Below are positions 54,001-57,000 of a stretch of 64,000 nt of DNA, piece after piece. The stretch's first letter is position 1; each line of letters begins with the position of its first letter. The stretch comes from Escherichia coli. GTDB taxonomy: Bacteria; Pseudomonadota; Gammaproteobacteria; Enterobacterales; Enterobacteriaceae. The stretch lies in assembly GCF_011045215.1 (NCBI RefSeq), contig NZ_CP049201.1. One strand, given 5' to 3'. Made by a program: the position numbers.

Positions 54001-57000
54001 GGCAGGGTAATGGACTGGTTCATTTTTCCAGGCGGACTTCTTTCCGTCAACCGACTTCATCTGATGCTCCCCCTTCTTCCGATGATACGCCTTTGCCAGG
54101 TGGATGCTCTGATACCAGGAAGGCTTCTGACAAAAAATCTGGTGGATCCGCTGTACTCTGGGTCACGCGTGGTGATGTGGAAGCGGTACAGAAAGCCATG
54201 GAGAGAGCCCTTTATCTCGTGAAGTATGAGACGAAGCAGCATGACGGTTCAGGTCAACGTAATTATGGTTGCAGTCGTGGGGCGGGGCGTCTACTGGATG
54301 GCAGGTGAACCCGGTAAAATGGCATCCGGTGCCTGAGCATACGTCACGTAATTAACTGTCTTGACCAACAAAATTATGGAGTAACCTGATGGCAGGATTC
54401 ATTACATTTCTTTGTTCTTTCTGAGCATCGCATTCAGGATGGTCAGCAGTTTGCGCATACAGGCTACCAGTACCGCCGTAGTCATTACGCCGATGCCTTT
54501 AATGTTGCTCAGGTGCTCAGTTGGTTCTTTAAAATGGTTCCGGATGTGGGGGGGTATCTTCCAGCGCTTTGATGATATTAATGTTTTTTGCTTTACGGGG
54601 GAGCCGGGTACAACCTGTTTCGCTCAGTAACTGGTATAGCGATCAACTGGCGTCTGCGAACGACTATGGCATTAAGAACCTGACGTTCTGCATCCGGCAA
54701 AGTCCGGATAAAGCGGTTTCGTTCCGGATGGTAATTAATAACTGCAGCCATCTGGGCAAAAACCCGCGCATCAATGCGGTCAGTCTTCGCCAGATATCCC
54801 ATCGCACGGGCAAAGTGGGGTTAACTACGGCGATCTCAAAACCTTCGGGCTGAAACGTACAGGTTATGGTGGCCTTCCATCAACACAAAGGCTATATCGT
54901 GCTGCCTCAGTTCAGCGATGATGAAATCAAAGCCGTCAGCACCACTGGCAACAGAAAACAGTTCAATAGTGTTGCTGGCGGCAATATCCAGCGTTGTTTT
55001 GGACACATCGGTATCGACACAAAGTGGATTTGGCAGACTCATTATTGCCCATTCTTGCTAATGTGTTATGGAGTACGGACAACTGTTCGGGTTTCAGATG
55101 AGTGGCTCAGCGTATGCGCCATTTGCTTACATACGGGCTTAAACCCTAAGGGGCACCAGGCTGCATACGTTTTGCCAAATCTGTTCTCTGCTCATGATAA
55201 CGAAGAACCAGGATACAAGGTGAAAGAAGATCCTCAACGCTCAGGGGCGTAATGTTCCCTGTGTTTCATGCCCCCATCGTTTGTTGCTGTGGTGCCAGAC
55301 TTCCGAGGCACTTCCATGTCGTTTTGTTTTTGTCAGCATCATAAATGCGTCGGGACTGGTGAATGGAGATAAGCCGTTTTATTATCGGGATCAGCGAACA
55401 TACTCACAATGTCGGAATGTTTCTGAACTGAACAATAAGTTTTGTGCTGATTACAGTATGTGAAGGAGGTCAGGCACAATGAATCCTGCTTATATGCAAG
55501 CCTTGCAGATATCCCCCCACTTCCCCGCCAATATAACCAGGCGATTATTTCCTGGTGAGCTTGCATTCCTCATTGAAGACTTATATGCAAGTACCCAACT
55601 TCCGCTGGAGCTCATTTTTAATACTGTACTGGCAACGCTCTCACTCTCCTGTCAGTCACTGGTTGACGTTGTTCATCCTCACACCAACATGCCGGAACCC
55701 TGCTCACTTTATCTGTTGGCAATCGCAGAGCCAGGCGCGGGAAAAACAACGATAAACAGACTGGTGATGAACCCCTGTTACGAATTTGCTGATCGACTCA
55801 TTCAACAATACGAAGAGAGAAACAAAGATTATAAGACTGAACTACAGATCTGGAATACCCGGCAGAAAGCGCTTGCTGCCAATTTAAGAAAGGCTGTTAA
55901 CCGGGGGTATCCGGGGGAACAGGAAGAAGAGGCACTGCGTAATCACGAAAGAAATAAACCGACACGTCCGGTTCGACCGAATTTTATCTATGAAGATGTT
56001 TCGCTTAAAGCGCTTGTGGAAGGGCTCAATGAACATCCTGAGGTAGGGGTTATTTCTGATGAGGCGGTCACTTTTTTCAGAAGCTATCTGAAAAATTATC
56101 CGGGCCTGTTGAATAAAGCATGGAGTGGGCAACCGTTTGATTTTGGACGGGCTGACGAGAAATACCATATCACGCCACGACTGACATTTTCGTTAATGTC
56201 CCAGCCGGATGTCTTTACGAATTATATAAATAAAAATGACGTACTGGCGTGGGGAAGCGGATTTCTTTCCCGGTTTCTGTTCAGTCAGGTTGTAAGTTCT
56301 TCCTGGATACGTGATTATACGAGAGGCGAGTTCAGAACAATACCAACCCTGGAGAAATTTCATAAAAAGATTAACGGATTTCTGTTAAGCCATAACATTA
56401 ATTCCCCCGGCACGAGCACCGAAAGGAAGACATTAAAACTTGCGAAAAAAGCGTTGGGGGAGTGGCAGGAAAACCAGATTAAGATTGAAAGAAAAACGCT
56501 TGCAGGAGGGGAGTGGGAACACATCAGAGATATTGTGCTGAAAGCAGGTTCTAATATACTGAGGATAGCGGGTTTATTCACCTGCTATTGCTATAAAGAT
56601 GCTGAGGAAATTGAATCAATTGCGCTTTTTAAAGCTATGCATCTCATGGACTGGTATCTGGAGGAAGCGAGCACAATATTTTATCCCATGTCTGAACGAT
56701 GCCAGTTTGAACAGGATAGCCGTGAGCTGTATACATGGATTATGACCCGAATCAGACAGAATAACTGGTGTGCTATCAGGAAAACAGACATTGAAAGATA
56801 TGGTCCCAATCGTCTGAGAAGAGCAGAAAAACTTACACCTGTGCTCAATCAGTTAATCTGTCAGGGGTATTTATGTATCATCAGAATGCGAACGCATCAG
56901 ACACTTTATGTTTCTGTTCGTTATAATAATGGTTGCATCCCTCCTTTTGGCGCAATGTCTTACGAATCATTTGAGATTATTCCACCCGAGAATAGCCATA

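Follow-up and report, generated by a model that had tools for sequence, protein, structure and literature searches.

We analysed a 64,000-nt stretch of Escherichia coli DNA (contig NZ_CP049201.1 of assembly GCF_011045215.1; hereafter the window, with positions counted from its first base). Within a CP4-type island of this stretch, the remnant of an insertion sequence lies on the minus strand between two plus-strand genes, a YagK/YfjJ gene (“inovirus Gp2 family”) at 53577-54308 and a YfjI/DUF3987 gene at 55479-57083. The remnant spans 54353-55217 (865 bp) and is very probably a decayed element of the IS110 family that inserted at a CT dinucleotide of the island and died in place, with a bridge RNA gene that is nearly intact and bears no sign of use. 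It belongs to the IS110 subgroup and resembles IS621, the E. coli element of that subgroup that served to define bridge RNAs (Durrant et al. 2024, PMC11208160; structures 8WT6-8WT9). The kind of element is already known, and the remnant itself is a new, unnamed and decayed member. The present analysis establishes its identity, its borders and its decay, together with the architecture of the RNA and the guide logic of its relatives.

The borders follow from homology to intact elements and from alleles that lack the insertion. In blastn searches and alignments, the homology shared by the window, an intact element on the E. coli plasmid pSTEC388_2 (L004) and a chromosomal pseudogene (L003) starts at one common base and ends together. 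Among the 8 to 16 relatives compared, left ends read flank-CT-TGTATC and right ends ...CAAGACAGTTG-CT-flank. The left core CT of the relic, which precedes TGTATC in all relatives and corresponds to the single CT of the empty site, is at 55218-55219 (minus strand). At the right end, the left donor half-site at 54353-54359 (minus strand) reads ACAGTTA where the relatives have ACAGTTG, and the adjoining core at 54351-54352 (minus strand) is AT where they have CT. Both the last base of the element and the core are thus altered, and the same changes are found in the orthologous relic of E. coli ECSC054 (L001); by comparison with the relatives, the AT would fit a later mutation of CT. The non-coding left end comprises the 175 bases upstream of the ATG (55217-55043), and the right end is about 47 nt long in the relic and shorter in the relatives. 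Intact relatives measure about 1168 bp, so that the relic is about 300 bp shorter.

An earlier interpretation made from the DNA alone (the sequence-only reading) had placed the remnant at 54402-55300, with a non-coding region at 55043-55300 that could hold a bridge-RNA-like structure. The remnant is real and its left end is indeed non-coding and RNA-bearing; the limits have to be moved to 55217 and 54353, which puts the right end 49 bp past the assigned start and the outer left border at 55217 (55219 with the core) instead of 55300. Positions 55220-55300 showed no similarity to relatives in the alignment to family members and are island DNA. It was the alignment to intact IS110-family elements, as proposed in that reading, that delimited both ends and revealed the left-end similarity. 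The same reading had inferred a past insertion between the Gp2-like and DUF3987 genes, and this is borne out by E. coli alleles that run continuously across the site without the element. A query made of the joined flanks found both flanks contiguous, with no element between them, in 110 genomes. Two such empty alleles (L018 and L019) read ...CACGCC-CT-TACTGTGAC... precisely at the position of the relic, with TACTGTG right after the CT; the empty allele carries one CT at the insertion point, and the relic keeps CT on its left and AT on its right. Because the empty alleles are continuous across the site with a single CT, the insertion is real and took place at CT. No second copy was found within the 64-kb window by sequence or RNA-model search.

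The bridge RNA gene and its guides

Two short hypervariable stretches apart, the relatives show strong conservation throughout the non-coding part of the left end (175 bases) and into the recombinase open reading frame (ORF), over its first 17 nt. A covariance model (R1) made from ten relatives, to which neither the window nor its ortholog L001 contributed, matched the window once, at 55026-55182 on the minus strand, with 161 bits (E about 1e-40) over model positions 1-158; intact elements score 132-178 bits under the same model. The covariance-model search suggested by the sequence-only reading thus delimits a bridge RNA gene of 157 nt that extends 17 nt into the recombinase ORF, and the two-loop structured RNA lies in the left end, upstream of the recombinase. 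The suspicion of a bridge-RNA-like upstream region is upheld by four lines of evidence: the full-length match to R1, compensatory changes, a loop-to-loop alignment with the IS621 bridge RNA, and the matching of guides to flanks in seven elements.

RNAalifold, applied to 12 distinct sequences, returned a closing helix, a first stem with a large internal loop and an apical hairpin, and a second stem of like design. The first stem is the target-binding loop (55109-55171, minus strand), with a basal stem formed by 55171-55163 and 55117-55109 and an apical hairpin at 55146-55135. The second is the donor-binding loop (55037-55103, minus strand), whose basal stem pairs 55103-55098 with 55042-55037, the ATG included, and whose inner stem pairs 55092-55089 with 55050-55047, as supported by RNAalifold and by pair counts. 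The 3' strand of the closing helix (55027-55034, minus strand) lies in ORF codons 3-6 and pairs with 55181-55174; its eight pairs are formed in 97.9% of the alignment cells, and its changes among relatives are one-sided G-U changes only. Over the whole hand-written structure, standard pairs occupy 90.8% of the cells, against 21-40% when the partners are slid by 1-3 columns. Both partners are changed in seven pairs, of which the first basal stem holds five, and the covariation score exceeds that of all 500 of 500 shuffles; the alignment is small and its sequences are related, so that covariation counts as supporting evidence and not as proof. The set was limited to 12 distinct sequences because a degenerate donor-loop motif scan of 100,044 species genomes gave only 7 loci. 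In single-sequence folding, the two-loop fold appeared with unremarkable energy z-scores (-1.1 for the window and -1.5 for L004); it is therefore covariation that supports the structure, since thermodynamics alone gives no support. In the bridge RNA region, no curated Rfam family reached its gathering score and no curated bridge RNA family was matched.

Four guide segments can be read in the two loops, all on the minus strand. In the target loop, the left guide region GGUGCCCCUUA (55147-55157) is hypervariable and identical to the guide of the pSTEC388-type element, and the right guide GUAUGUA is followed by AG, the complement of the core CT (55126-55134). In the donor loop, the left guide ACAGUUGUC (55078-55086) aligns with the IS621 guide ACAGUAUCA, and the right guide (55054-55062) reads AUUAGCAAG through a U-to-A change specific to the relic; most relatives and IS621 have AUUUGCAAG there.

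The guide role was examined by comparing guides with flanking DNA, which is a stronger test than covariation. The right target guide (the 7 nt before the invariant AG), read as its reverse complement, matches the right flank of seven independent elements at 6, 5, 5, 5, 5, 4 and 5 of 7 positions, mostly as unbroken runs that start at the core, against about 2 of 7 for non-cognate pairs of guide and flank. On the left side, the target guide and the left flank plus core share 5-8 contiguous bases in six of the seven elements. The guides of the donor loop correspond to the ends of the element itself. In the relatives, the left one, ACAGUUG, has the same sequence as the terminal 7 nt of the right end (ACAGTTG), and 6 of 7 positions match in the relic; the right one, AUU(A/U)GCAAG, lies opposite CT-TGTAT of the left end, an arrangement also seen in IS621. 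When model R1 was aligned with the IS621 bridge RNA with filters off, target loop fell on target loop and donor loop on donor loop (18.3 bits, E=2e-4 in 3 kb). The IS621 bridge RNA sequence used for this comparison is present at 100% identity in E. coli genomes, beside a gene annotated as an IS621 family transposase.

These matches bear on another account of the structure, in which it would be a mere 5' untranslated leader that controls recombinase translation by sequestering the ribosome-binding site and the AUG, and not a guide RNA. The position of the AUG and the first codons, inside the donor-loop basal stem and the closing helix, speaks for such a role, as does the AAGGA stretch in the right donor guide region of the RNA's 3' part, which we take to be the ribosome-binding site. 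However, the two hypervariable loop strands co-vary with the flanking DNA of each element, the other two strands match the element's own ends, and the model aligns loop for loop with the characterised bridge RNA of IS621. A leader function could coexist with guide function, yet it leaves the guide matches unexplained, and we hold a leader without guide function to be extremely improbable.

A product of the opposite strand was also considered, namely a plus-strand small RNA (sRNA) resembling sX15 and antisense to the bridge RNA region. Full-length, sub-threshold matches to Rfam RF02234 lie opposite the bridge RNA in the window (55030-55183, plus strand, 27.4 bits) and in L004 (2535-2694, minus strand, 26.7 bits); moreover, Northern blots in Xanthomonas showed both sX15 and the complementary asX7, and the S. 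maltophilia K279a chromosome has ten homologues (PMC3300014). Yet both scores are far under the gathering score of 55, the two matches fall on near-identical sequences and are not independent, the promoter scan gave no promoter-like site on the plus strand, and the reverse complement of a structured RNA often scores by symmetry. The chance that a plus-strand sRNA is the functional product therefore appears negligible, and a bridge RNA gene on the minus strand remains our reading of the left end. The consensus of RF02234 itself includes the reverse complement of the donor-guide motif CCCGAACAGUUG, and this Rfam family may model the antisense strand of an IS110-family bridge RNA.

Several observations on related elements were made alongside. 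The L003 pseudogene (L003 and L002, 1501-2670, E. coli chromosomes) is longer than the relic and of the same family, has a 969-bp ORF with one internal stop, and lies between zinc-ribbon genes with another Gp2-family gene nearby; its right target guide still agrees with the flank across CT and 5 further nt, and the fit of its left guide is poor. In four elements from different genera (L007, L010, L014 and L016), the insertion follows ...CATA(T/C)GCTCCTC-CT, whose reverse complement, AGGAGGAGC(A/G)TATG, resembles a ribosome-binding site with a start codon, read on the opposite strand; their left target guide, GAUUCCUCC, is similar to the site. Paraburkholderia lacunae (L013) carries two inverted bridge RNA motifs about 430 bp apart, at 3730-3886 (plus strand, 156.9 bits) and 3147-3302 (minus strand, 96.8 bits). 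In one IS621 copy (L017, 1383-1460), the first ~70 nt of the left end, from CT-TGTATTATCCC... to the left target guide ATCGGGCCT, are tandemly doubled, which looks as if one copy had inserted in a target-like sequence inside the guide of another. A 147-bp left-end/bridge RNA fragment of 78-80% identity, with no annotated feature, is present on an E. coli chromosome (NZ_OW967966.1, 2103954-2104100) and may be a solo left end. Family matches were found in 2584 of 5426 genomes, and in 813 of these 2584 one place spans at least 80% of the query.

Decay of the recombinase gene and of the RNA

Three-frame translation and tblastn with an intact 323-aa relative showed that the minus-strand recombinase ORF is split among different frames. 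The N-terminal fragment (54872-55042; amino acids (aa) 1-57 of 323) carries the first D and the E of the DEDD motif and is followed in another frame by aa ~63-82 (54817-54876). The middle fragment (54594-54802; aa ~88-160), also recognised by family profiles, includes KTDRIDA with the last two D of DEDD and has a stop at its end; aa 161-175 follow in a further frame (54556-54600). Two C-terminal fragments identified by tblastn, aa 187-212 (54470-54548) and aa 292-313 (54408-54473), together cover 54408-54548 and are joined over a deletion of ~79 codons near 54470-54473, as is also seen when L004 3203-3555 is set against window 54556-54470. Aa ~213-291 of the intact protein are gone, including the NRDSGT motif, which by analogy with IS621 we take to hold the catalytic serine. 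In all, the gene has suffered several frameshifts, two in-frame stops, a 13-bp deletion and the loss of ~79 codons.

What is left is readily recognised. The fragments match the intact relative with a tblastn E value of 5e-56, and the DEDD residues are readable, with the motifs D(V)SK, (L)ME and KTDRIDA present. The 69-aa middle piece matches NCBIfam NF033542 (E=6.9e-8) and Pfam PF01548 (E=4.6e-4), and the 68-aa N-terminal piece matches no Pfam or NCBIfam family. The relic thus keeps the N-terminal DEDD (RuvC-like) domain and lacks the C-terminal catalytic-serine domain. Since the serine domain is deleted, this copy is a relic and not a working member of the family. The broken transposase frame and inactive element noted from the DNA alone are accordingly explained by the frameshifts, the stops and the serine-domain deletion. 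At the orthologous E. coli locus, PGAP annotates an “IS110 family transposase, frameshifted; incomplete”. A 128-aa ATG-initiated ORF at 54866-55252 (plus strand) runs antisense over the N-terminal fragment and the bridge RNA gene and is probably spurious.

Taken together, we propose that an IS110-subgroup element inserted at a CT between the YagK/YfjJ (Gp2-like) and YfjI (DUF3987) genes and afterwards died in place, its recombinase destroyed, its serine domain deleted, and its right half-site and core mutated. While active, according to the published work on IS621, such an element would have excised as a circle, in which the joined right and left ends would create a sigma-70 promoter for a bridge RNA of ~160 nt. 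One loop of this RNA would pair with the target site and the other with the joined ends of the element, and the RNA-guided DEDD/serine recombinase would exchange strands at the CT core. For the relatives studied here, the circle-junction promoter and the recombination chemistry are inferred from IS621.

As for the present state of the locus, the RNA of the relic is presumably silent and useless, and nothing in its sequence suggests otherwise; what is “retained” would be the sequence of a bridge RNA and not its function. The -10 box of the bridge RNA promoter, TATCAT, lies at 55194-55199 (minus strand), and TAnnnT occurs at the same alignment position in all relatives. A TTGCTT 17 nt upstream of this box is created only by joining the right end (..TTG) through CT to the left end (T..), and the integrated element has CACCTT in that place. 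The -35 box would therefore form only across the right-end/left-end junction of the circle, and reconstitution of the -35 box at the circle junction is the IS110 logic of the published IS621 work (PMC11208160). A promoter scan of the integrated state detected nothing promoter-like for the RNA, the only minus-strand sites being at 55409-55381 and 55069-55041.

The RNA sequence itself is also eroding. The relic has non-consensus bases at three positions that are invariant among ten relatives: position 55064, changed in the window only, where the apical stem of the donor loop is broken; the G that follows the right donor guide; and the U of the inner donor-loop stem, the latter two shared with L001. 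In its donor loop, the inner stem is interrupted by an A-C mismatch and the apical stem by a C-A mismatch. Among five alleles of the relic, there are five variable sites in the RNA and one in the promoter part, all of them lineage-specific and none compensatory; of the changes in the RNA, three disrupt helix pairs, one removes an invariant base of the linker, and one affects the first base of the right target guide. Variable sites make up 2.6% of the left end and RNA and 4.6% of the dead coding sequence (p=0.31, a test of low power with five alleles and five variable sites), and divergence between the window and L001 is a uniform 2.0-2.5% throughout the relic. Selection on an orphan RNA is thus not supported, and the RNA gene, no better conserved than the dead coding sequence, decays at the same rate.

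These data also bear on the possibility that the chromosomal bridge RNA serves as an orphan guide, still transcribed by read-through or from a weak promoter and usable in trans by an incoming pSTEC388-type recombinase, or that the intact left end acts as a recombination partner. The RNA is full length, at 161 bits, and has the same guide loops as the intact L004 element on a plasmid; bridge RNAs of IS621 act in trans (PMC11208160), and pSTEC388-type elements of at least 99% identity are present in 54 E. coli records. However, the integrated state offers no -35 box or promoter-like site, three invariant positions and the right donor guide are changed, conservation does not exceed that of the dead coding sequence, and the right-end half-site and core are mutated. 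Furthermore, an identical guide would bring the incoming element no new specificity. We therefore regard continued use of the RNA as quite unlikely and favour an element that is dead in both its recombinase and its RNA.

Some observations weigh against this conclusion or are less well explained by it, besides the low power of the allele comparison. The score of the relic RNA (161 bits) lies within the range of intact elements (132-178), and sequence alone cannot prove loss of function; likewise, the A-C stem mismatch (alignment columns 13/77) also occurs in one intact Klebsiella element. The target loop of the relic predicts the site GGTGCCC-CT-TACATAC, and the window flanks, CTTTCAC-CT/AT-TACGTGA, match it over six contiguous bases (C, the CT core and TAC); the site of the empty allele, CCACGCC-CT-TACTGTG, has seven contiguous bases (CCCTTAC) in common with it. 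This fit would agree with insertion at this CT, although it is well below the matches of intact relatives. The left flank of the relic is a poorly conserved stretch among the alleles. The fit of the flanks to guides of the Citrobacter braakii type is weak too, like that to the relic's own guides, so that the element may have carried either target loop at the time of insertion.

A mosaic left end and its setting

The two closest relatives of the relic are not the same along its length. Positions 55219-55122, which comprise the otherwise variable promoter part and the whole target-binding loop with both hypervariable guides, are 94-95% identical to the pSTEC388-type element. The apex of the donor loop, the recombinase gene and the right end are instead closest to an element of C. 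braakii (79-82%) and only 47-68% identical to the pSTEC388 type. At 25 sites between 55208 and 55122 that separate both relatives, the relic has the pSTEC388-type base 24 times and neither base once; from 55073 onward, the sites are mostly of C. braakii type. The switch point falls within a 48-nt stretch (55121-55074) that is the same in all three sequences.

Purifying selection was rejected as the cause of this mosaic, as it cannot account for identity in the most variable loops. The simplest reading is recombination between element lineages in the invariant linker, in which any of these lineages could be the recombinant. We judge it about as likely as not that bridge-RNA elements naturally exchanged the target-guide module and that the relic is a record of this. 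If so, IS110 elements could trade target specificity in the form of a cassette, through homologous recombination in the invariant segment of linker and donor loop, as a natural counterpart of laboratory reprogramming.

For the host genome, the relic has little consequence: it is a dead insertion sequence, RefSeq already flags an IS110 pseudogene at orthologous loci, and the RNA gene is apparently a fossil. Its relatives yield useful by-products. They define a variant RNA architecture, which lacks a 5' stem-loop and has a closing helix extending into the ORF, and the guide-to-flank rule seen in seven independent elements is clear enough to predict insertion sites. They also expose a gap in annotation, as the ISEc32-like enterobacterial bridge RNA matches no Rfam family at its gathering score; the present alignment and structure define this RNA. 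The points worth carrying forward are this missing Rfam family and the mosaic left end, which suggests that target-guide modules move between elements by recombination and may matter more than the relic itself.

The island around the relic recurs in the same arrangement, at ~95% identity, in 197 complete E. coli genomes, where the piece between the two genes bears the PGAP annotation of a frameshifted, incomplete IS110 transposase. Over 53400-57083, comparison of the window with L001 gave divergences of 10.9% for the Gp2/YfjJ gene, 6.7% for YfjI and 7.5% for the spacer at 55221-55478, against 2.0-2.5% for the relic; this unequal divergence indicates that the island is a patchwork of segments with different histories. 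Elsewhere in the window, C0719 sRNA was found at 21079-21300 (minus strand, 299 bits). A 1525-aa ORF at 23528-28105 is followed by a run of ORFs on the same strand, and this may be the yghJ/sslE-gsp region for type II secretion in E. coli. The window is chromosomal E. coli DNA, and its glcD-glcE stretch shows 99.9% identity with many genomes of the species.

Comparison with known systems

Elements of the IS1111 subgroup of the IS110 family (seekRNA elements) have a recombinase of the same superfamily and carry their guide RNA downstream, in the right end. The RNA of the relic, in contrast, lies upstream of the ORF, and the right end is only about 25-47 nt long. Membership of the IS1111 subgroup was therefore rejected, the sole match to the RNA model being upstream of the recombinase ORF.

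IS621 provides the closest characterised parallel in organisation. An intact relative of the relic passes NCBIfam NF033542 (“IS110 family RNA-guided transposase”) with 222.5 bits, the cut-off being 140, and matches the solved recombinases of IS621 and ISCro4 over the full length (E about 1e-29). As in IS621, the RNA is in the left end upstream of the recombinase, has two internal loops and serves a CT core; in each loop the 5' strand carries the left guide and the 3' strand the right guide. The donor of IS621, ACAGTAT-CT-TGTAT, is nearly identical to ACAGTTG-CT-TGTAT in the relatives of the relic, the right donor guide AUUUGCAAG is shared, and in both the -35 box would be present only at the circle junction, as judged from the DNA of the relatives. 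The proteins, however, are distant (phmmer E about 1e-29 and 107 bits over the full length), and IS621 has 298 bp of total non-coding DNA against ~200 bp in the relatives. IS621 also has a 5' stem-loop, whereas the RNA of the relatives lacks one and its closing helix pairs the 5' end with ORF codons 3-6. Furthermore, the longer right target guide is read in the relatives as 7 nt plus the core, and the copy in the window is dead.

A bridge RNA lacking the 5' stem-loop is also reported for ISPpu10 of Pseudomonas putida, together with a target DNA hairpin requirement for that element (bioRxiv 10.64898/2026.03.19.712850). ISPpu10 would resemble the relatives of the relic in the missing stem-loop, and it differs from them in host and lineage.

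Nearer relatives are found among enterobacterial elements. ISEc32 (L006) is the named one and is more distant, with ~67% DNA identity between L004 and ISEc32-type elements; Bertels et al. (10.1101/119735) employ ISEc32 as a BLAST query only, and nothing on the present element is contained in that work. Related elements, ISEc32 included, are common on plasmids of Klebsiella and E. coli. The two closest are both intact and unnamed: the element of C. braakii ATCC 51113 (L011), with 79-82% DNA identity in the recombinase gene and right end, and that of E. coli plasmid pSTEC388_2 (L004), with 94-95% identity in the promoter and target-loop part. These two and ISEc32 have the ends and the RNA architecture of the relic in common, and the two differ from it in their intact 323-aa ORFs.

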